A stretch of DNA of 64,000 nucleotides from a virus. The notes under the pieces were generated by a model. It was not told the DNA's origin. It ran no database searches and saw nothing but the letters and a program-made list of their open reading frames with translations. Position numbers and translations under genes: made by a program. The stretch covers positions 49,715-113,714 of the IMG/VR virus record IMGVR_UViG_3300042448_002155. One strand, 5' to 3'. Shown in pieces: positions 2,244-64,000 of the stretch; the first letter of the stretch is position 1, and every line of letters begins with the position of its first letter.

Positions 2244-5200
2244 TTAATAAGATCGGGCTATCGATTGATATGGGTCTCTTGCCACATCCGGGATTCTATT
2301 ATACATAGTACTGTTAATACTCCCATTAGTGAGTCCCGATGCTGCTGCACTAAATTTTTGTATTTGGTCCCTATCGCCAAATAGGGAGACCTTATAATTC
2401 ATGCCCGCAGTAAAGCCTTGACCTCGTGCCTGTGGAATTTCTGACATTCTCTTTGGATAGTCGGACTCATAAGCTGATCCTCCTGGCAAAAGGGGTGGGC
2501 CGGACATGGCTTCCTGAGTGTGATCTTTTTTGTTTTGATATAAAAAGCTAGCTGCTATAGCTATTCCAGCACCTATGGCTGCATTGCGGACTCCGGGTTT
2601 GGCGAACTGCTCTGCTAGATATTGTTTGTTCATTCTTTTGTACATCGATTGTGAGGCAGTTGATTTCTTTACCTGCGACAGGTCCCTAAGGGTGTCTGCA
2701 ACAACTCCTGGAGTTGTTTCTGTTATATCATCTGCGGAAGAAAGAATTCTACTTGAAGCTAAATCTCCATTTAAGAAGGCTGCAGCTTCCTTGTCTGCCT
2801 GTGCATTCAATTCAAAGGCAGTTTTATTTCTTAGCGCTCTAGCTATTTGCTGTTCTTCCATAGTGCCTGCCCCTTCCTCGGCCTGGCCTTTTATGATTGA
2901 TGAAATAACAGAAGAAGTTTTGCCTGTTCCAAAAAAGTCATCTGCAAAATCTAAGTCCAGCGCATCATCCATGATGCCTGCCTTTTGAGTATCGGACATA
3001 TTGCCAAAAATGTCATCGACGTATTGTCTTAGTTGAAGGTTCTTAGTTGACTTTTCGTATATAGCCTTTTGATCTGACATTTGCATATACCTATGAAAGA
3101 GATTAAGGCTCTCATTGTCTATGTTTGTTGATGAGTCTGGAAGTTTTGTAAAAAACTCTGGAGCTATTTTTCTTCTTAATCCGCCATATTGAAGGGCGCT
3201 AGTTAGTTCATACCCAGATATGCCCATTGATTTTTGCACGTCTTGAAGATTTCTTAGTAAATTATCTCCCAGTTCTATTTTTTTTATCTCTAATGCTATT
3301 TTTGATGATTCTGCAAAAGAGCCACTTTGTATTTCGTCAGCTAAACTTTGTACTGCTTTTATTCTTTCTTGATTTTCGTCTAATATTTTTTCTGCTGCAA
3401 TTCGTGATCTTTCGCTTGTCCTGGAGACTAGCTCTTGTTCTTGACTGATTTGCGCATTTCTTCCCAGTTTTGCCATGGCTTCTAGGTAATAGTTTGAAGT
3501 ATTAGCTACGTCTACTATCTCAGAGAGTGATCCTTTTGCTATAATTCCTCTGGCCCTTAAAACTTTTTCTACTTCGTCATATTGTTGAGATTCTACGGCT
3601 TTATTAATGTCAGTTACATCTGCAGCGTTGTCTGCCTCCAACATCCCTGCTGATAAACTTCTTGCAAAATTTATAAGATCATTCTTATTCATTTTTTTAC
3701 TAGTTAAGAAAGCTTCATCGAGTACAAGGGCCTTACGTGGATCCATTGGATCCATTCCATCAAGTTTGTGTTTTTGCCTTAAGTAACCAAACATTTTTCC
3801 ATACTGTTGCATTGTTTTGTCGCCAAAATCATTTAGGTTAGTTTCTTTTCCGTATAATTCTTTTAGTACTTTTACTCCCAAGTTTGGATCTCCATTTGCA
3901 AGCTTAGTAGTTTGCCCCAACAGCATTCGTCCAGATGTAAAAGTTTGCGTCATGTCAATGACGGTTTCAGCTGGAGTAAAAGCTAACATTAGCTTCTTAT
4001 TTATCAAGTCCTCTTGTATGCCAGGAATTGTCCCCAGCATGTCTTCCATCTGCCTTAGGCCATGTCCAACCACAGTAGCTCTATTAATGTACTGTCCAAG
4101 GATGTTTGTATTTTCTATTGCTGAGTCAATACTCTTATTTATGAAAGATTTTCCTAGTGCAATACTTTTTTGTTCAGGGCTAATATTTAACGCATTGACT
4201 GTCTTATAAAACTTATCTGATAAACTTTGTATTTCCCTATCGGCGTCTTCAAGATCAACTCCGCCTAAATTTAAACGATTTTTTCTTTGATCTTTTAATT
4301 CTTTCGTCATCTGTTGAAGTTGACTTTTTTGCGATCTACTTATCAGGCTCATGCTATCTAGACTTGATAAGACTTCTTGTTCGAGTGGCATTTCTGCCAC
4401 TTCTGCCACTAGCCTCTGGAACCCAAGTGACATTAGTCCTGGATCTTGGTCACCTAAAGCGATTAATTTTGTTGCAGAGAAATGAGTAACTCCTTCTGTG
4501 CCATCGTCTAAAGTTCCAAAAACTCCTAATTTTTTAAAAAAGTTTTTATTAAAATCTCGCATTCCGCCAGTTCTAACACCATTGTCGAACTTAGCGCCGC
4601 TTAAGATGTCATTAACCTCAATGGTTAATTGTTCAATTGTACCCATCATTGAACTATTTATGACATCATCTGAAACTCCAGATCCGTCAAATGCCATTTT
4701 TAATCCAAGAAATTTAGAATCTCCTTTAGCCATCTCATCCAAAGTCTTCATAAAGAATCTATTGCCACCAAAAATTTCACGATAGCTTTCTATGTCCTCA
4801 AACCTAGTAAGGCCAATAACTTCGCCCATTGAAGTAGGCTGACGGACCATGGCGGCACCTAGTCTGCGCTTACCTTCAGACATATAGGTTCCAAGTATAG
4901 GCAATCCCTTATCGTCTAAGTCGAAACCTCCTAGTGCATGATAGAACTTTCTAATGTCATCTTCATGAAATAAAATATTATGATTAGAAACTCTGAACTG
5001 CGCAATCTGTGCGGAAATTTCATCGCCAGCTTCACCTATCGTTACCTTAATCGGCTTTCCTGATAATATCTTTGTTGGGTCAATGTCAATTGACTTTCCT
5101 GATAGCGTCTTTCTTCCAGTAGTTCCAGTCATTGCATTTGCTTCCGAGTTAAGAGCAAATCTATATACATCACCAACCACTGGAAGTCTCTGCCCATTTT

Positions 5201-7097
5201 TTGTTTTATACAACTCAGCTTCATAGTATTTTTTTAACAGATTTAAATATTCTGGAGAATCATTAATGCTTATACCACTTCTATGCAGATCTAAGATTCT
5301 TTGCGCAAAGTCTCTATTTAACATTTTTGAAAATTGCTGAGGTTCCGCAAACTGTTCAATATCTTGTTGTGCAAGTTTTTTAATCCCCTGCAAAACTTCA
5401 CTGTTATCGGTTAAGCGCCCACTTTCCAATATCCCCTTAAATTCATCTAACACATTTCTTGAGTACTTGCTGGATATTGCTATATCTTCTGTGTTTCCAA
5501 ATATTGCGTCATGGAAAGAAGCCAACATTGGGTCCGTGTACACTCTAGAAGTGGATTCAGCTAGTCCGCTTAGATTTAATACAGGAGTACCTGCTGCTAT
5601 TCCTGTTTCTTTCTTTAATCCACTAATTGATGTTATGATTCCATACTTCTCAAATCTTTTTGAAAAATTTTTAAATTGAGCCGCTGACTTATAAGAGTAA
5701 TCAACACCGCCAATTCGCACAGAACCTCTAACCGTACCCTGAGATAAACCTATGGCCTCTCCGTCTTTTATATTTAGCTCAGATAACTGCCTTCTTAATT
5801 CAACCTTACGAATCATTGATTGTTCATCCCTATTTTGGGTTAGACTCCCCAATTCTTGGTGCAAGGTTTTTCTTAATTCACTTGCAAATTTTGTATTGAT
5901 TAACGATGAACCATCTCGACCTTTCTCCAACTCATCTAGCAGGCTCTTAATAACTCCGCTTGTTTCATCATCAATTAAACTTGAATTGTTAGGGTCGTTT
6001 AGGAACTTTTTTATTTCATTGGTGCCGAATATGCCCTTATCGGAGTCATTCTTTCCGTCTCTAATAATATCTTTTACGAGATTTTCTAGTGAATTAAGTA
6101 TTTTTGTTTTATCTAAATTTGACGTCGGTGTTGTCCGAGATTTAATTATTTCATCTAATACATTATTAACATAACTGCTTGCTTCTTCAACCGCTGTTCC
6201 GCCACCCTTATACTGAAAAGATTCTTCCATAAATGCTCTTACGTCAAATTGCTTTGTGCCTAGGGCAAAGTTCTTAGCGGTGTCCTGATCAAAGCCTAAG
6301 GCTATTGTCTCAAACACATTGTCCATAGCAAGAGTGGCTTGTGATAATTCATCCATTATTCCTTTAGGCCCAAAAACTGTAGGCTTGCTCAGGAACGATT
6401 TCATGAGGTCTCCGGATATGGAAATATCTCTTGGAGAAAGAACACCTTTTAATCTTTTTGGAAGCTTTGCAAATAATTTAGATAAGCCTTCGTTTCCACC
6501 TTTTAATGCTTTATCTAATTCGTCTGGAGTGAACAAAGGTCTTCCGCCTTTGGACATTGCCTCTAGGGTTTCCTCCATTGACAATACTCGATCACCTTGG
6601 CGAAGACTAAGAGCCATTCCACCCTCATCGGTAGGAAATATTAATCCAGCCTTTTGATTTTTCATGTCCTGAAGGAATTTTCCAATACTTTCAGAGCCAG
6701 CTTCTGCTTTATGAATTTTGATTTGAGCACCGTATTGCTGATCTCCAGTCAACCCTAATGCTTCATTAATATCCATGAGCACCTGCCCGTAACCCCTGTA
6801 CGTGGAAGGGCCAAGAGTTCCTGGCTCGATATTTACTAGCTCAGTCAATCCAAAGCTAGATACATGCTGCGCAACCTCTTCTATTGAATCGGATACGAAC
6901 TGTGCTGATTGGCCTGCCTTTAGCCTTAGGGGGTCAATGTAGGTTGATTTAAATTTTAATTTTCCGTCAACATCAACAACTTCTATCAATCCTTTTTGGC
7001 CAAGATAGCTTTTACTTAAAGCCTGTTTGGCTAAAAGTAATCGTCTCTCCCTTGGCATGGGAGATAGGTATGACTGAATATAATCAGATACAGACAT
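2244..7097 (-). CDS. Putative virion-associated single-chain two-barrel RNA polymerase-like protein (1617 aa) with a C-terminal hydrophobic segment
   Basis: Ordered motifs KLPKRL, RDGSSLI, GTVRG...YKS, GGFDLDD (4911-4931), VRQPTSMGE and LGQYIN. These parallel YonO/RdRP motifs and the ORF at 60553. Confidence 0.6.
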   Translation of the reverse strand: MSVSDYIQSYLSPMPRERRLLLAKQALSKSYLGQKGLIEVVDVDGKLKFKSTYIDPLRLKAGQSAQFVSDSIEEVAQHVSSFGLTELVNIEPGTLGPSTYRGYGQVLMDINEALGLTGDQQYGAQIKIHKAEAGSESIGKFLQDMKNQKAGLIFPTDEGGMALSLRQGDRVLSMEETLEAMSKGGRPLFTPDELDKALKGGNEGLSKLFAKLPKRLKGVLSPRDISISGDLMKSFLSKPTVFGPKGIMDELSQATLAMDNVFETIALGFDQDTAKNFALGTKQFDVRAFMEESFQYKGGGTAVEEASSYVNNVLDEIIKSRTTPTSNLDKTKILNSLENLVKDIIRDGKNDSDKGIFGTNEIKKFLNDPNNSSLIDDETSGVIKSLLDELEKGRDGSSLINTKFASELRKTLHQELGSLTQNRDEQSMIRKVELRRQLSELNIKDGEAIGLSQGTVRGSVRIGGVDYSYKSAAQFKNFSKRFEKYGIITSISGLKKETGIAAGTPVLNLSGLAESTSRVYTDPMLASFHDAIFGNTEDIAISSKYSRNVLDEFKGILESGRLTDNSEVLQGIKKLAQQDIEQFAEPQQFSKMLNRDFAQRILDLHRSGISINDSPEYLNLLKKYYEAELYKTKNGQRLPVVGDVYRFALNSEANAMTGTTGRKTLSGKSIDIDPTKILSGKPIKVTIGEAGDEISAQIAQFRVSNHNILFHEDDIRKFYHALGGFDLDDKGLPILGTYMSEGKRRLGAAMVRQPTSMGEVIGLTRFEDIESYREIFGGNRFFMKTLDEMAKGDSKFLGLKMAFDGSGVSDDVINSSMMGTIEQLTIEVNDILSGAKFDNGVRTGGMRDFNKNFFKKLGVFGTLDDGTEGVTHFSATKLIALGDQDPGLMSLGFQRLVAEVAEMPLEQEVLSSLDSMSLISRSQKSQLQQMTKELKDQRKNRLNLGGVDLEDADREIQSLSDKFYKTVNALNISPEQKSIALGKSFINKSIDSAIENTNILGQYINRATVVGHGLRQMEDMLGTIPGIQEDLINKKLMLAFTPAETVIDMTQTFTSGRMLLGQTTKLANGDPNLGVKVLKELYGKETNLNDFGDKTMQQYGKMFGYLRQKHKLDGMDPMDPRKALVLDEAFLTSKKMNKNDLINFARSLSAGMLEADNAADVTDINKAVESQQYDEVEKVLRARGIIAKGSLSEIVDVANTSNYYLEAMAKLGRNAQISQEQELVSRTSERSRIAAEKILDENQERIKAVQSLADEIQSGSFAESSKIALEIKKIELGDNLLRNLQDVQKSMGISGYELTSALQYGGLRRKIAPEFFTKLPDSSTNIDNESLNLFHRYMQMSDQKAIYEKSTKNLQLRQYVDDIFGNMSDTQKAGIMDDALDLDFADDFFGTGKTSSVISSIIKGQAEEGAGTMEEQQIARALRNKTAFELNAQADKEAAAFLNGDLASSRILSSADDITETTPGVVADTLRDLSQVKKSTASQSMYKRMNKQYLAEQFAKPGVRNAAIGAGIAIAASFLYQNKKDHTQEAMSGPPLLPGGSAYESDYPKRMSEIPQARGQGFTAGMNYKVSLFGDRDQIQKFSAAASGLTNGSINSTMYNRIPDVARDPYQSIARSY

Positions 7098-49512: not shown

Positions 49513-50228
49513 TATTCTTTAATTTCTGAACTCGGTATTTCTATATAATCATCTTTGTCATAAATTCCAAGTTTTTGCTTTAAGAGCTTTTCTCTTTGAT
49601 TCTCTAGTGATTGAACCTTGAACAATATGTCAGATATGGCTTGTGCGCTGTCGAGTTGAGTTTGGCCAACCTTGGCTTTAGCTTCTCTAGTTGCAAGTAA
49701 TTGATTTCTTAAATCTTTTCTGCGTCGATGAAGTCTATCTTCAAGTTCTACAGCTAAGTGAAGTTCTTTTTTTAGAATTGGCATTCCGTCATTGTCAACG
49801 CCAATAATGTTCTCTTGAATGAAATGCTCTTTAGCTAGAAGTTTGGTCTTGCGAATATACTGAACTTCTTGATCTACTAGATCTCTAATCATAGAAACCT
49901 CTACAAGATTATCTGGGTGGACGTCTAGTTGTTCCATATACTCTGCTGTAAATTGTGAAACGATTGACATTTCTATTGGGCATGGCTTTCCCCGAGGAGC
50001 TAGGTTTTCCTTTAGCAGTGGGCAAGTATCAGCAAACGTACATTTAGATGCTTCGCAGTTCATGGGGATTGAAGAAAACATTGATGTCCTAGTTTTCTGT
50101 GGCCGGACTAAATCAACAGCCTTTTCTCTTTGTTCATCAGTCCATGTTTCAGGGAAAAATAAATCTGGTCTCAAAGACTCAAAATTATTTAAAAATTTAC
50201 TTTTATCATTTTTTTCAATATTACCCAT
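49512..50228 (-). CDS. Cys-motif helical protein, possibly the terminase small subunit
   Basis: CEASKC...CP...CP followed by a coiled coil; the TerS role is positional inference only. Confidence 0.4.
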   Translation of the reverse strand: MGNIEKNDKSKFLNNFESLRPDLFFPETWTDEQREKAVDLVRPQKTRTSMFSSIPMNCEASKCTFADTCPLLKENLAPRGKPCPIEMSIVSQFTAEYMEQLDVHPDNLVEVSMIRDLVDQEVQYIRKTKLLAKEHFIQENIIGVDNDGMPILKKELHLAVELEDRLHRRRKDLRNQLLATREAKAKVGQTQLDSAQAISDILFKVQSLENQREKLLKQKLGIYDKDDYIEIPSSEIKE

Positions 50229-59054: not shown

Positions 59055-59324
59055 ATGTTGTCATTCATTAATAAGAAGGTCATCTTTGCGGTGGCAGTAG
59101 CAGTAGCAGTGTTGTTGGTATTGGAGCCAACAACCGATATCACAATGGCGGTATTGCGCTTGCCAAGTAAGGCTGCTTGGATGATCTTGGGCTTTGTGTT
59201 CAGTATCATCAACTGGCCAGTGCTTATTATGATGGTCATTGGTTTTGCCGTGGCTTTTGTAGTAAAGACCAGGTCAGTTGACTGGTCAGAGGTAAAGTCC
59301 TTCTTTAATAAAGAAGAGGCTTAA
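59055..59324 (+). CDS. Small membrane protein, paralog of 58609-58836
   Basis: GGAGG RBS; hydrophobic; PT...INW motif. Confidence 0.7.
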   Translation: MLSFINKKVIFAVAVAVAVLLVLEPTTDITMAVLRLPSKAAWMILGFVFSIINWPVLIMMVIGFAVAFVVKTRSVDWSEVKSFFNKEEA

Positions 59325-59485
59325 TCAAGAGGGGTGATGGTCCACCTCTTTAATAGAGAAGAAGTTGTTTCCCCTGGGGTCTTCGGATCCTGGGGGAAAC
59401 TTCTTTTTTGAGGATAGACCCATGGTCTTTCTCTAGGCTTAAGCCACAGCCTAGCCATCCCGGCGAAGTGGCAAAGGGGGTCGAG

Positions 59486-59776
59486 ATGAAGCTCGACATC
59501 CAATGGTGGGCAACCACTCAAGACGCCATCGTGGGGTTAATTCCCCTCGACGGCAAAACCCTCGTGATCAAAAGCGATCATGATGGCAACTTCATTGGCT
59601 ACAAGGCCGATGAAGTTACCCTTGAACACCTCGCAATTGCGGGCGAGACATTTCGCCTGTATGCGGTGTGCAGGAGGGGCAGAAGGGTTGAGGAGATTCG
59701 TCTCCTTAATCCTGTCCTTATGGACTTGTTGGGGATTGACCCTAACGAGATCATGAGGTCCACTACCTTTAGTTGA
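59486..59776 (+). CDS. Hypothetical protein (96 aa)
   Basis: Start MKLDIQWW after AAAGGGGG. Confidence 0.6.
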   Translation: MKLDIQWWATTQDAIVGLIPLDGKTLVIKSDHDGNFIGYKADEVTLEHLAIAGETFRLYAVCRRGRRVEEIRLLNPVLMDLLGIDPNEIMRSTTFS

Positions 59777-59882
59777 GGTGGTGGAGCAAAAAGGTTGTTT
59801 CCCCTGGGGTCTTCGGACTCTGGGGGAAACACCTTTTTTGATTATAGACCCCCGAACAACTGAAGGGGTTGGAAAGGTAATC

Positions 59883-60026
59883 ATGAGCGAGCCATACGAG
59901 TGTTTAGACGGAGTGTGCCGGGACGTAGTGTCATGGACACCCATGGGTGTGCTTGCAGCCGTCGTCATAACGGCTATATCGGTACTTGCCATTGTTCGCG
60001 TCATTGAGCAAATCCGACGCAAGTAA
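59883..60026 (+). CDS. Small single-TM protein (47 aa)
   Basis: Start MSEPYEC after GAAAGG. Confidence 0.55.
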   Translation: MSEPYECLDGVCRDVVSWTPMGVLAAVVITAISVLAIVRVIEQIRRK

Positions 60027-60144
60027 TTGGTAATTATTAGTAATTGAGTTGTTCCCCGGGGATTGGCAGAAATGCTGGTCCTCGGGGAAACTTCTTTTTT
60101 GAGTATAGGCCGTTGGTCTACTCTAATCCTGAAAGGGGATTGTT

Positions 60145-60429
60145 ATGAGTATGTTTGCAAAATATTGTACCCTCTGTGTCAAGAGGGGACGCAAGAATCC
60201 ACCTGCTCCAGTACATCGGAGTAAGGTCTGGGCATATTGCCATGACTGCTATGTAGAGCAGTTTCCAGCAATGGCCATCAAGCGGGGTTATATCGAAGCT
60301 CCGCCTAAGGCACCCCAACAGCCCAAGGAAAGGGTTATGGAAGTGTTTGTTCAGACTTCTCTCTTCGAGAAGGAGGAGAAGTTTAATATCCGCAAATTCG
60401 GTTGTGGATGTCAGGGTCTTCTGCCATAA
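60145..60429 (+). CDS. Zinc-finger-like protein (94 aa)
   Basis: CTLC...CHDC; GAAAGGGG RBS. Confidence 0.65.
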   Translation: MSMFAKYCTLCVKRGRKNPPAPVHRSKVWAYCHDCYVEQFPAMAIKRGYIEAPPKAPQQPKERVMEVFVQTSLFEKEEKFNIRKFGCGCQGLLP

Positions 60430-60552
60430 CGGTGGGAGATGCAAAGAGGCCTCAGATCCAGGGTAGCACCTGGGTCTGGGGTCTTTTTTATTATCAAAGT
60501 TTCTTTTTTGAGTATAGACCTCCGAACAACCGAAGAGGTCAGAAAGGTAATC

Positions 60553-63500
60553 ATGAAAGTTTCAACCACCACCAATAACAGTCCAAAGGAGGACGCCATG
60601 AAGCAAGCAAGAACTACTGGCAAGATCTACGCGGGTTCAGGCTCACGTAGCCTAAAGCTAGATGCGGAAATGTTCACTCGGGTGTTTAATCGCCTAATTG
60701 AAATGATTCGCGAAACCAAGCCAGCCATGCTTATCACAGGTATGGCTGAAGGTTTTGACGAAGCTCTGGCATTGGCAGCCATGGCTACCCAAACGCCATT
60801 GAAGGCCATGATCCCCTATAAGGGCTATGGCAATCACTATTGGGGTAAGGCATCCATTACTGGTCAGAGCCGTTTAACTGAGTACAGGGACATCCTTACC
60901 TATGCCCAGTCTACGGGAGGAGTGGAGTACATCTGCTCAGATAAGAAAGGCCCTGACGGTCGTTGGGCTATGACTCATCGCAATGAAGCCATGGCTAATG
61001 CTTGCCATAAGGCTTGGGTCTACAACCCTACTACGGCCGGGACAAAGCAGTTCCATGACTATTGCGTGGCCAACCAAATTCCGCACTACATCATCAAATT
61101 CAACGATGGGGAAGGCCCTGGGGATACACCTCAGACGCCAACCCCAGAAGGTCCAAAGGAGGACAAAGCAATGAAGAAATACCTAGTTAAGTACACAGAC
61201 GGCACTGAAGAGGTGATCGTCACGGACAAGGGAATCCTTGGATTAACCCAAGACCTCAAAGATGCAGGAAAGGGTTGTTCTATCAAAACCTATAAGGAGG
61301 AAGTTATGGAAATGACTCAGATCAAAACTGAGAAGCAAGTTACACCAGAGGCAGCTCTTATCAAGCGAGAACTGCTTAGCCCTGAAACTCAGGAGTGGTT
61401 ACTCTCCGTCTTGGAGAACGAGATTGCTCCAATGCTGGTCAAGGACATCAGTTCTTATGCGCCTGGTCGTATGCGGACCTGGATGCCGTACGAAGCTCCC
61501 CTTGATACGTCCGCTAGCAAGAACAAGCCATTCGTGCCCGGAGTCCTGCACGATGAGCTCTGGCAGTTCATCGTTGACCTATGCCACAAGCATGGGATGA
61601 AAGCGCAAACCTGTCTCATCTCAAAGGGTGGGAACATCAAACCTCACCGAGACACCACTTATGCTGATGCCTGGGCCATGGGCATAAATCTGGGTGTCTG
61701 CAACTGGCACATCAGCTCTACCCGAGATGGAGCCAAGCCGGACTTCACCATGAACCTTAAAGGAGGGGAAGTGTTTGCATTTAATAGTAAGCACGTACAT
61801 GCAGTGACAGACGCTGCATCAGACCGATGGGCAATCAATGTGTGGGCAATTGCTGACACAAAGGCAGCTCAGACCGCTCAAATTCATGAGCGAATCACTC
61901 AGATGCTTGAGGACAATCCTCGGGTAGCTGAATTCATCGACCATCACCAACCAGGTGCTGGCAAAACAGAAAGGGAGGAAGTCGTGGAGACACCTCAGAT
62001 CAAGGCCGTAGACGCATCCATTCAAGAAGTCATTGAACCAAATAAGGAGCAGAAAGTTATGGACACACCTCAGATCAAAGGAGATATGAATATGTACAGC
62101 TGGATTGAACAGCCAGATATGACTACCCATACCGGTTGGGATAAGGACCGCAAACAGGTCGACGCAATGTTCGGAGAGCAAATCCGGACAGTGTTGACCA
62201 ACAATCCAACGCCTAAGCAGCGTCAGGACATGGCAAACGCCACACTGGGCACTGGTGCAACGATCATTGATGCAGTCAAGGGACTGTGGATGATGCCTGT
62301 CAAGATGGGCGAATACATCTTCCCAATGCTTGAGCGTCTGGGCAATGCGGGAGTTAGGTTCACCCTAGAGGTGCACCCGCTCAAGTACGCAGCCCTCTGG
62401 TACGATGCCAGAACCGGATTCGAGACTCGCTTTGGGGACATCTGGTCCAACGGTGCAAACCTCAAATGGGTTGACGCAGCCCACCTCTACACCATTCGAC
62501 TGGAGGGCATTCCGGTTGGAACTGAGTTCGACTGGACTCAAGTAGGTCTAGAAGTAAAGGATGCAAAGAAGATGGGTAAGCGCCTTGCAGAGCTCACTCG
62601 TCTTGTGCATAAAGATGCATGGACATGGTTTCAGCACAAGGCTGTAATCATCAAGCCCGAGGTTGGGGCACTGGATCCTGCGTTCGAGATCATCAAGCAC
62701 GATGGCCTCAATGCCGTAAAGCGTTCTGCCCTACCTAAGGGTGTTCGCAAGTATGACCGAATCATGGGTCGTGTATTTTGCTCCATCGTTGTGGACGGAA
62801 AGACTGTCCCCGTACTCGTCAAGGGTGACTACTTGGTGGTCAATGATGACATGTGGATCCATGGACATGCTCATTTGGCTATCCACATGGAGAACGCTAA
62901 GACCGAGGTCACACTTGCTGCTGGCCAGAAAGATCTTGCTACCTGGTGGAATCATGAGCCTTTGCACGTGACCACATGGGATCAGCAAACTCTCATCAAC
63001 TACCCCAACATTCTGACCGTTGAGGATATGGAAGCTGACTACCTCCATGAGATGAATGGAATTGACGAGGCACTTAAGCAGGGACGTCTCCCAGGTCAGA
63101 CAGAAGTTGAGGACATAGAAGTCCATACCGATGCATTCGAGGTCGCACCTAAGGCTGACGAAATCGAAAAGCGTGAGTCTTTGGCAAAGTACGCCAAGGA
63201 TGCAGGTTTCGATCCTCGGATGTTTGAGAACCTCATCGGTATGTCACTGATGGGCTTCGTAGATAGCAAGTCACGTGAACTCCGCTTTGATGGAAACATG
63301 AAAGGCTTCCATGGTAAGCACATGGTGACCATGCGTAACTCATTCCGTGCAGGGTGCGTTACTCGCGAATTCCTAGAAGCTTTTGTTGGTGACGGAGCTT
63401 TTGCAGGAGTTTCCACGCCTACCTCACACGCTTATTATGATGAGCGTTGGGGCATGGTTTGGAATGGTGATCACTTCGCACGTTCCTTTGAACTGCACGG

Positions 63501-64000
63501 CACTCATGATGGTGACGATGTTCACTTCGTGTTGCCGATCAAGGTTTGGTCGAAAGATCCGACTACGATTGCTGCGCTTAAGGCTGCGGGAGTTCTTCTT
63601 CCGGGAGTATCTATCCCTAGCGTAGAGGCAAAGGCCAAAATGCTTCTCATTGTCTTCCGCATCCCCAATGGTGCTGGAGAGTACTCCTTAATGGAGTTTG
63701 ACTTTGCCACATGGCCTCAGACCATTGATTTCGACGAGTCTCTTGTCAAGACTCATGAGTTGAGCTTCCTCAGCGGTTGGGTCAAGCCTCAGTCAATGCT
63801 GATCCCGATCAATATGCCAGGACTTACCACTAGTCGTGTGTACAGCAAGACTGCTTATACCAAGGCAGATTTTGCCATGGACTTCAATGCACAGGTAGTC
63901 AATCCTGGCTTTGGTCAGTTGTGCAATGCTTTGGCTGCGTACAGTCACTTGACTCATGGGGATATCCCAACCTGCATGCCTGATAGCCTGGGCAACTGTG
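60553..64000 (+). CDS. Multidomain protein running off the right edge: YspA-like SLOG domain, 2OG-Fe(II) oxygenase domain and two-barrel RNA polymerase-like region (absent from ORF track)
   Basis: Hand translation has no stop codon up to 64000. SLOG: AGSGSR, ITGMAEGFD, RNEAM, AGT. 2OG: IKPHRD, HVHAV, RWAINVW. Polymerase-like: KKMGKRL, HDGLN, GRV...VKGD, HGTHDGDD, FRIPNGAGE, FGQLCN. Confidence 0.75.
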   Translation, partial: MKVSTTTNNSPKEDAMKQARTTGKIYAGSGSRSLKLDAEMFTRVFNRLIEMIRETKPAMLITGMAEGFDEALALAAMATQTPLKAMIPYKGYGNHYWGKASITGQSRLTEYRDILTYAQSTGGVEYICSDKKGPDGRWAMTHRNEAMANACHKAWVYNPTTAGTKQFHDYCVANQIPHYIIKFNDGEGPGDTPQTPTPEGPKEDKAMKKYLVKYTDGTEEVIVTDKGILGLTQDLKDAGKGCSIKTYKEEVMEMTQIKTEKQVTPEAALIKRELLSPETQEWLLSVLENEIAPMLVKDISSYAPGRMRTWMPYEAPLDTSASKNKPFVPGVLHDELWQFIVDLCHKHGMKAQTCLISKGGNIKPHRDTTYADAWAMGINLGVCNWHISSTRDGAKPDFTMNLKGGEVFAFNSKHVHAVTDAASDRWAINVWAIADTKAAQTAQIHERITQMLEDNPRVAEFIDHHQPGAGKTEREEVVETPQIKAVDASIQEVIEPNKEQKVMDTPQIKGDMNMYSWIEQPDMTTHTGWDKDRKQVDAMFGEQIRTVLTNNPTPKQRQDMANATLGTGATIIDAVKGLWMMPVKMGEYIFPMLERLGNAGVRFTLEVHPLKYAALWYDARTGFETRFGDIWSNGANLKWVDAAHLYTIRLEGIPVGTEFDWTQVGLEVKDAKKMGKRLAELTRLVHKDAWTWFQHKAVIIKPEVGALDPAFEIIKHDGLNAVKRSALPKGVRKYDRIMGRVFCSIVVDGKTVPVLVKGDYLVVNDDMWIHGHAHLAIHMENAKTEVTLAAGQKDLATWWNHEPLHVTTWDQQTLINYPNILTVEDMEADYLHEMNGIDEALKQGRLPGQTEVEDIEVHTDAFEVAPKADEIEKRESLAKYAKDAGFDPRMFENLIGMSLMGFVDSKSRELRFDGNMKGFHGKHMVTMRNSFRAGCVTREFLEAFVGDGAFAGVSTPTSHAYYDERWGMVWNGDHFARSFELHGTHDGDDVHFVLPIKVWSKDPTTIAALKAAGVLLPGVSIPSVEAKAKMLLIVFRIPNGAGEYSLMEFDFATWPQTIDFDESLVKTHELSFLSGWVKPQSMLIPINMPGLTTSRVYSKTAYTKADFAMDFNAQVVNPGFGQLCNALAAYSHLTHGDIPTCMPDSLGNC

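Follow-up and report, generated by a model that had tools for sequence, protein, structure and literature searches.

Genes that yield two products from one reading frame through an in-frame internal start include T7 gene 4A/4B, phiX174 A/A* and the genes of the plasmid primases Sog (SogL/SogS) and TraC (TraC1/TraC2). The TraC1 and SogL forms are named in PMC5512222, phage endolysin genes also give two polypeptides by way of an in-frame internal start (PMC9430671), and alternative start sites in E. coli have been mapped by retapamulin ribosome profiling (10.1101/520783). Single-chain two-barrel RNA polymerases (RNAPs), a second group of relevance here, further include crAss-like phi14:2 gp66 and YonO (PMC5467207). 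The gene described below lies on the + strand of a 64,000-nucleotide stretch of viral DNA (IMG/VR record IMGVR_UViG_3300042448_002155, positions 49,715 to 113,714; hereafter the window, numbered from its first base). Its open reading frame (ORF) places a SLOG module, a small domain and an AlkB-like 2-oxoglutarate (2OG) oxygenase module before a QDE-1-like polymerase, and Shine-Dalgarno (SD) motifs with in-frame start codons stand at the module boundaries. On the sequence comparisons and fold models presented here, the gene is probably a modular in-frame fusion whose conserved internal initiation sites yield nested isoforms and whose linkers double as joints for module exchange. The anatomy of the gene, the conservation of its junctions, their nucleotide-level signature and the gain and loss of modules at the linkers were all observed.

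Modules and start signals of the polymerase-fusion gene

The residues encoded by 60598-62085 were modelled with AlphaFold (model m67a1e2c21cef; predicted local distance difference test score, pLDDT, 83), and the model contained three folded units with disordered stretches between them (Table 1). The putative SLOG module was matched by Foldseek to B. subtilis YpsA (2nx2; E 8.5e-6, TMt 0.68) and also matched PHROG 289 (E 1.8e-8); no Pfam match was obtained for the window's own copy, and Pfam YpsA was found above cut-off in the related proteins P0003 and P0007 (relatives are given as P numbers for proteins and L numbers for DNA loci). The small domain is the usual N-terminal companion of the polymerase family and stands ahead of the polymerase in L005, L008, L041 and L047. 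It is followed by the disordered linker 2 (model residues 235-245) and by the putative 2OG module, for which Foldseek returned ALKBH6, ABH2, AlkB and ALKBH5 (E ~1e-6, TMt ~0.6) and Pfam a weak match to PF13640 (15.9 bits, below the cut-off of 27). Searches of GenBank phages by blastn and tblastn gave distant matches to the SLOG and 2OG parts only.

The initial annotation had labelled the C-terminal part an RNAP. Pfam, PHROGs and PDB sequence searches with this part gave no match, and it was identified by fold search only. The window copy is truncated; the fold was read from the model (pLDDT 85.7) of a relative, P0016, whose identity to the window's polymerase part is 45%. With this model QDE-1 was found both by Foldseek (E 4e-7) and by VIA-align (Z 12.2, root-mean-square deviation 5.9 Å, 605 residues aligned), and VIA-align also matched RDR2, P74 gp62, P32 gp64, P23-45 gp96 and crAss gp66. 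The overall fold with two double-psi beta-barrels, that of the QDE-1/RDR branch of two-barrel RNA polymerases, was found in the model, so that the label holds at the level of fold. The same annotation had called a 1617-amino-acid (aa) ORF on the minus strand (2244-7097) RNAP-like, and homology of that ORF to this polymerase family found no support (hhalign probability 0.6%). The family comprised 67 detectable cluster representatives, mostly stand-alone proteins of ~890 aa. Its invariant acidic loop D-x-D-D (H-D-G-D-D, 63505-63519), known from sequence alone, may be a variant metal-binding loop.

Nested in-frame ribosome-binding sites (RBSs) had been reported at the domain boundaries. Every SD and start codon pair on that list was recovered where it had been placed, all in a single frame and with no intervening stop. 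The accompanying claim that the starts fall just before the modules agreed with the AlphaFold model, in which every pair but one (GTG 61771) lay in a predicted disordered linker directly ahead of a folded unit. At the six boundary pairs an SD-like motif stood 4-10 nt ahead of an in-frame ATG or GTG, with anti-SD duplexes of -8.5 to -12.2 kcal/mol. RNA structure around the starts was weak (-4 to -12 kcal/mol versus -14.7 ± 4.0); at ATG 61171 the minimum free energy of the local 61 nt was -5.4 versus a background of -14.7. The repeats described earlier were also confirmed: the 14-mer GTCCAAAGGAGGAC occurs exactly twice (60581 and 61151; none expected in shuffles) and ACACCTCAGA three times (61126, 61990 and 62065; 0.11 expected). 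The 15-codon leader at the start of the gene is kept in L003, L001 and L004. The pair at GTG 61771, an addition to the original list, is probably no real start and serves as an internal control; it is encoded by a conserved G-G-E-V-F protein motif that is also present in L001, L003, L004 and L047.

The motif AAGGAGG occurs seven times in the 113.7-kb genome, always on the + strand, and five of the seven copies lie within 60370-61766 of the window. A passage of PMC5100845 states that coding regions in general avoid SD motifs. Internal strong SD and start pairs numbered six in this ORF, compared with one in the 26,489 codons of 31 other ORFs of at least 300 aa, and none was present in the 635 polymerase codons. 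When the 80 in-frame starts were ranked by anti-SD duplex energy, the top nine all fell within the first 514 codons. The K-E dipeptides of the ORF, four of four, were encoded by AAG-GAG and followed by a start 4-5 codons on.

No internal sigma-70 promoter was found upstream of the boundary starts, the one + strand consensus match in the ORF (63410-63438) lying deep in the polymerase. The + strand ORF list contained no out-of-frame small gene beginning at the linkers, and the +1 ORF at 60983-61174 merely terminates in the ATGA at 61171. Nor was a slippery site for frameshift or termination seen at the TAA that lies out of frame in TAAGGAGG. A stable hairpin was predicted in linker 1 at ~61107-61146, just 5' of the internal SD (fold z-score -2.3), and might be a gate on SD access or a processing site.

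Table 1. Features of the polymerase-fusion gene and its immediate upstream region (window coordinates; spacing is from SD to start codon, energies are anti-SD duplexes).
Feature	Position	Strand	Details
Hairpin with T-run, then GAGTATAGACC motif	~60450-60490; motif 60510-60520	+	probable terminator/promoter cassette, predicted from sequence
Leader, 15 codons in frame	60553-60597	+	ATG 60553; weak SD GAAAGG 60542-60547; -6.5 kcal/mol
SD AAGGAGG, ATG 60598	SD 60586-60592	+	5 nt; SLOG module start; -11.6 kcal/mol; within 14-mer GTCCAAAGGAGGAC
SLOG (YpsA-like) module	60616-61107	+	model residues 7-170; pLDDT above 90
Linker 1, disordered (G-D-T-P-Q-T-P...P-K-E-D)	61108-61170	+	pLDDT below 50; second copy of GTCCAAAGGAGGAC
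SD AAGGAGG, ATG 61171 (then AAG AAA)	SD 61156-61162	+	8 nt; small-domain start; -11.6 kcal/mol
Small beta-beta-alpha-beta domain, 43 aa (M-K-K-Y-L-V-K-Y-T-D-G start)	61171-61299	+	model residues 192-234; pLDDT ~90
SD TAAGGAGG, ATG 61306 (also ATG 61312)	SD 61293-61300	+	5 nt; 2OG start, in short linker 2; -12.2 kcal/mol
AlkB-like 2OG-Fe(II) oxygenase module	61333-61965	+	assigned by model fold; H-R-D and a later H as read from the residues
AAGGAGG, GTG 61771	61760-61773	+	4 nt; additional pair; in folded 2OG core, beta strand (model)
Linker 3, repeated 'TPQ' cassette	61966-62091	+	pLDDT ~31
SD GGGAGG, GTG 61984	SD 61973-61978	+	5 nt; linker 3
SD TAAGGAG, ATG 62059	SD 62043-62049	+	9 nt; linker 3
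SD AAAGGAG, ATG 62092	SD 62077-62083	+	8 nt; linker 3; ATG 62086 merely 2 nt from SD
QDE-1/RDR-like two-barrel RNA polymerase module	62092-63999	+	cut by contig end; fold from relative

Conservation of the junctions across the polymerase family

The nucleotide-level family test drew on 17 distinct DNA loci, of which six belong to the window's lineage and eleven are divergent, and protein-level patterns were used for the rest; for P0003-P0009 and most family representatives, the junctions were read from protein sequences. The internal pairs proved to be conserved. In relatives from 90% down to ~18% identity they were kept at every junction, each with an SD-like motif 4-10 nt ahead of an ATG or GTG in frame, and AAG was often the next codon. 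Homologous junctions retained SD and start in L003 (90% identity), L001/L004 (57-58%) and L005/L008 (45-48%). In eight divergent loci that carry an N-terminal extension (L041, L048, L049, L050, L052, L056, L058 and L062), the junction start ranked first to fourth among 50-95 in-frame starts by anti-SD pairing. The multi-module fusion L047 was less clear-cut, its junction starts ranking fifth and sixth of 122, and L060, which has no N-terminal extension, had no strong internal site. At the protein level, of 38 family representatives that carry an N-terminal extension (50%-identity cluster representatives), 16 had K-E-x(1-3)-M within 16 residues of the core start, against a background of 0.3% per window of protein sequence (p ~6e-30). 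The L041 polymerase aligns to the family by profile only (hhalign E 8e-28, 18% identity), and the alignment of its core begins exactly at the Met after an internal AAGGAGG.

The codon after AAG-GAG always began with G, though it encoded D, E, G or V; at the GAG-GAG junction of L001/L004 the next codon was GCA, for alanine. In six loci, in-frame AAG-GAG-Gnn was followed by a start 4-5 codons on in 17 of 17 cases, whereas AAG-GAG with a non-G codon was often without a start. The GGAGG core was also encoded in other frames and by other residues: as Q-G-G in L041 and L008, as T-G-G and R-G-G in L056 and L058, as S-G-G in L047, and as both K-G-A and N-G-E-V in L049 and L056. ATG and GTG interchanged at the same site between relatives. 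That the SD core is kept across different reading frames and amino acids points to selection on nucleotides. These encodings also answer a caveat of the initial annotation, which had warned that K-E and K-D codons can mimic SD sequences.

Small domain and polymerase core were fused in every lineage seen, and the SD and start at their junction were still kept at ~18-25% identity. Herein lies the chief argument for a functional start, at least in front of the polymerase core, since an unused relic would not survive such divergence.

Module exchange at the linkers and the case for internal initiation

Among the relatives, SLOG, AlkB-like 2OG, PIF1, NADAR and DUF4326 modules occurred in varied orders around the polymerase. 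The order was PIF1 helicase, SLOG, small domain, 2OG and polymerase in L001/L004, 2OG, small domain and polymerase in L005, and 2OG, small domain, SLOG, small domain and polymerase in L047. The polymerase was preceded by the small domain in L008 and L041, by 2OG in L056 and by NADAR in L058. In L001/L004 the GTCCAAAGGAGGAC 14-mer junction precedes the PIF1 helicase module, not SLOG. Scans of viral contigs with P0005 and P0008 gave no match, and with P0004 NADAR genes only.

The initial annotation had proposed that domains were added in front of the polymerase while earlier starts were kept, and this proposal was supported as far as sequence comparison can test it. The family is mostly stand-alone; relatives encode the modules separately, as SLOG proteins of ~170 aa (P0088, P0089) and 2OG proteins of ~200 aa (P0083, P0085) whose ends match the module limits; and the module ATGs are gene starts in L005 and L008. 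The small-domain ATG equivalent to 61171 is where the gene truly begins in L008 and L041, and the ATG 61171 pair is kept in L001, L003, L004 and L005. In L008 the small-domain ATG overlaps the stop (ATGA) of an upstream 98-aa ORF. In L005 the 2OG ATG is the real start of the 2OG-small-domain-polymerase gene, behind stops of the same kind of ORF. Because the ATG of a module serves as a genuine gene start wherever the module upstream of it is missing, and because stand-alone SLOG and 2OG proteins exist, the module-addition history is well supported.

As judged from comparison of the relatives, the linkers are repeated cassettes where modules are gained and lost, a point that goes beyond the initial annotation. 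A cassette consists of an SD, a GTG or ATG, x-T-P-Q and then ...I-Q-E-V-I-E-P-K-E-E-x-M, and in L001, L003 and L004 the 2OG module has a cassette at either end. P0012 and the L001 protein have polymerases that are 97% identical, and P0012 is without the 2OG module, exactly between two cassette copies. In L004 both linkers carry lineage-specific residues, e.g. 'GIVNTPQ', which suggests gene conversion. In linker 1, synonymous-codon identity to L004/L001 was 0.9-1.0 over ~75 nt, versus ~0.5 in the domain bodies, these relatives being 58% identical overall. From the repeats, the clean loss of 2OG, the signs of gene conversion and the synonymous identity of linker 1, the cassettes appear to act as recombination sites, or at least to be used as such.

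Under the reading favoured here, a phage QDE-1-like polymerase with its usual small N-terminal domain would have gained SLOG and AlkB-like 2OG modules; relatives carry a PIF1 helicase or NADAR module, alone or alongside SLOG/2OG. Each module would have been spliced in via a short repeated disordered linker cassette, and each cassette would carry a full initiation region, with a GGAGG-type SD, a spacing of 5-9 nt and an ATG or GTG whose next codon is often AAG. Initiation at 60553 or 60598 followed by read-through would give the full fusion, and initiation at 61171, 61306, 61984/62059 and 62092 would give N-terminally nested products, down to the bare polymerase; product sizes were estimated by homology at ~1455, 1264, 1219, 993/968 and 957 aa. 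The gene would in effect be an operon without stop codons, and its cassettes would supply homology for the gain, loss and reordering of modules between related phages. The conserved signals suggest that internal initiation probably does happen, and that it matters.

It is extremely improbable that the pairs reflect chance and composition, that is, Lys/Glu-rich linkers whose preferred AAG and GAG codons mimic an SD, with Met or Val following by accident. Codon preference does lean that way, with AAG making up 61 of the 82 Lys codons (74%) and GAG 57% of the Glu codons of the ORF, and the 61771 pair is clearly coincidental. Against this, the enrichment over the rest of the genome exceeds 100-fold, all pairs but one lie exactly at module boundaries, the K-E-x(1-3)-M pattern recurs family-wide with the probability given above, and synonymous-codon shuffles rarely or never reached the observed counts in the window (p=0.006), L003 (p<0.001) and L004 (p=0.001). 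Several points nevertheless count against use of the internal sites. The shuffles were not significant for L001, L005 and L008 taken alone, and the power of this test is limited because AAG and GAG are already preferred. The 61771 pair arises purely from a protein motif, an indication that such pairs can be coincidental, and linker 3 stacks two or three pairs. Most other genes of the phage have weak SDs or none. Part of the conservation of SD and start may also come from recombination.

On a rival account, which we regard as unlikely, the pairs would be recombination joints or relics only: they would persist through frequent movement of modules between stand-alone and fused states and through homogenisation of the repeated cassettes by recombination, marking splice points of which ribosomes make no useful use in the fused gene. 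The 2OG module is cleanly lost or gained at a linker repeat between P0012 and P0077, whose polymerases are 97% identical, module order runs from 2OG-small-pol (L005) through SLOG-small-2OG-pol (window) to PIF1 first (L001/L004), and the gene is 58-88% identical between flanks of 96-99%, as at a recombination hot spot. The near-1.0 synonymous identity spans ~75 nt of linker 1, beyond SD needs, and linkers within one genome have lineage-specific residues in common. A relic should have decayed, yet at the always fused small-domain/core junction SD and start are kept in differing frames and at the low identities noted above. Recombination homology needs neither a start codon at 5-9 nt nor G as the first position of the third codon, and a role as joints is compatible with nested initiation as a second role of the cassettes. 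A further account, which we consider improbable, turns on the peptides: T-P-Q... and S-I-Q-E-V-I-E-P-K-E-E would be polyprotein cleavage or docking sites, or the SD-like motifs would pause elongation for module folding, the starts being incidental. Elongation pausing at SD-like motifs has been proposed and is disputed. The linker peptides recur and are partly conserved, and a passage of PMC5512222 proposes proteolytic processing of polyvalent proteins in some systems. Against both versions, no protease module was found in this ORF or the relatives scanned, distant lineages keep SD and start without the TPQ peptide, the amino acids encoding the SD vary and its nucleotides do not, and pausing would require neither an ATG/GTG spaced 5-9 nt from the motif nor a Lys codon directly after that start.

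The favoured reading, nested initiation in a modular fusion, would have several consequences. Use of the internal starts would mean that five or six proteins come from a single phage gene where standard annotation reports one, and gene finders and proteomics databases miss such nested products. The accessory enzymes would be made in forms attached to a non-canonical RNA polymerase and in forms free of it, and RBS-bearing linker cassettes would be a simple genetic route for building and rebuilding multi-domain 'polyvalent' phage proteins, a class regarded as weaponry in conflicts between phage and host. That an internal start precedes the core family-wide is a testable prediction for the uncharacterised QDE-1-like phage polymerase family. 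A broader proposal is offered only tentatively, as somewhat doubtful: linker cassettes bearing translation initiation regions could be a general plug-and-play system for placing SLOG, AlkB-like oxygenase, NADAR and PIF1 helicase modules, or any other accessory enzyme gene, in frame and with no stop codon before the polymerase. One mRNA would give each enzyme tethered to the transcribing polymerase as well as shorter forms from which the modules further upstream are missing, and the strength of each internal SD would set the ratios. Tethering would then place counter-defence or nucleic-acid-repair chemistry where the phage is transcribed, and the cassettes would allow quick reshuffling of the accessory arsenal.

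Genomic setting and comparison with described systems

The window is the final 64 kb of an unclosed phage-like contig of 113.7 kb. Most genes are carried by the minus strand; a plus-strand block at ~53.1-64 kb contains a UvsX-like recombinase, several unknown genes and, at its end, the polymerase-fusion ORF, whose open frame extends from 60439 to the end of the contig and is free of stops up to 63999. Circular closure of the contig was rejected, as there was no terminal overlap and an end-to-start join gave a stop after nine codons; the ORF is cut. The complete protein in locus L003 (P0010, 88% identical) has 1469 aa, and ~321 C-terminal residues are therefore absent from the window's ORF. In the region ~59300-64000, GC is ~50% over the polymerase gene versus ~38-42% before it. 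Chimeric assembly as the source of this jump was ruled out, since gene and flanks are arranged alike in L003 and L004. Compared with the window, these two loci have 96-99% identity in the flanking genes and only 58-88% in the polymerase-fusion gene, whose module content differs; by these identities the gene is a hypervariable or diversification spot in an otherwise conserved phage lineage.

Because the hairpin with its T-run and the GAGTATAGACC motif precede the ORF, coding most likely begins at ATG 60553 or ATG 60598. The same hairpin and GAGTATAGACC stand ahead of the gene in L003, and L001 and L004 have GACAATAGACC / GACGATAGACC instead. A hairpin with a cUUCGg-type loop, a T-run and an ATAG/TAG-bearing motif was found ahead of the polymerase gene in the window (59367-60520), in L041 (~630-690; GGATAGGGTAGAG) and in the upstream regions of L050 and L060, so that the arrangement recurs in very distant phages with the same polymerase family. 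The hairpin and motif could form a terminator-promoter cassette that polymerases of this family read. A 94-aa ORF immediately 5' of the gene (60145-60429) has 88-92% identity in L001, L003 and L004 and no PHROG match. Directly 5' of the polymerase gene in L008 (525-821) and L005 (~40-360) lies a conserved ~98-aa ORF with two C-x-x-C pairs, zinc-ribbon-like.

With known in-frame internal-start genes, the locus has in common an SD and start inside an ORF, in frame, in a linker between two domains. The known cases give a full-length and a C-terminal protein with a common stop codon. Unlike those cases, which have one internal start, four module boundaries with six or seven SD and start pairs are present here; the arrangement, known in this family purely from its sequences, is moreover kept across the whole polymerase family, and its cassettes are also module-swap joints.

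Like the polyvalent proteins of Iyer, Burroughs, Anand, de Souza and Aravind (2017, PMC5512222), the ORF joins unrelated enzymatic modules in one phage polypeptide, with variable architectures, and as in polyvalent proteins of the N4 virion RNAP type the polymerase is one of the modules. In the text of that paper SLOG/YpsA, NADAR, DUF4326 and 2OG modules each have zero occurrences, and proteolytic release is proposed, not internal initiation. Virion packaging is not indicated for the present gene, which lies in an early-looking + strand block with the UvsX-like recombinase, after a promoter-like cassette.

The C-terminal module has the fold of the single-chain two-barrel polymerases QDE-1 and plant RDR2, with Z 12.2 to QDE-1, and fold Z scores of 7-9 to the Thermus phage enzymes P23-45 gp64 / P74 gp62 (non-virion RNAP) and gp96 (virion RNAP) (10.1101/2022.12.01.518664). 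It differs from the known two-barrel polymerases in having no detectable sequence similarity to them, and its loop is D-x-D-D, as against D-x-D-G-D in QDE-1 and D-F-D-x-D in crAss gp66. Neither N-terminal accessory enzymes nor nested starts are described for the QDE-1, RDR2, Thermus phage, crAss-like or YonO enzymes. Internal starts, polyvalent proteins and two-barrel phage polymerases are thus each known, and what is new is the multi-site, family-wide arrangement of SD and start pairs on a QDE-1-like polymerase.

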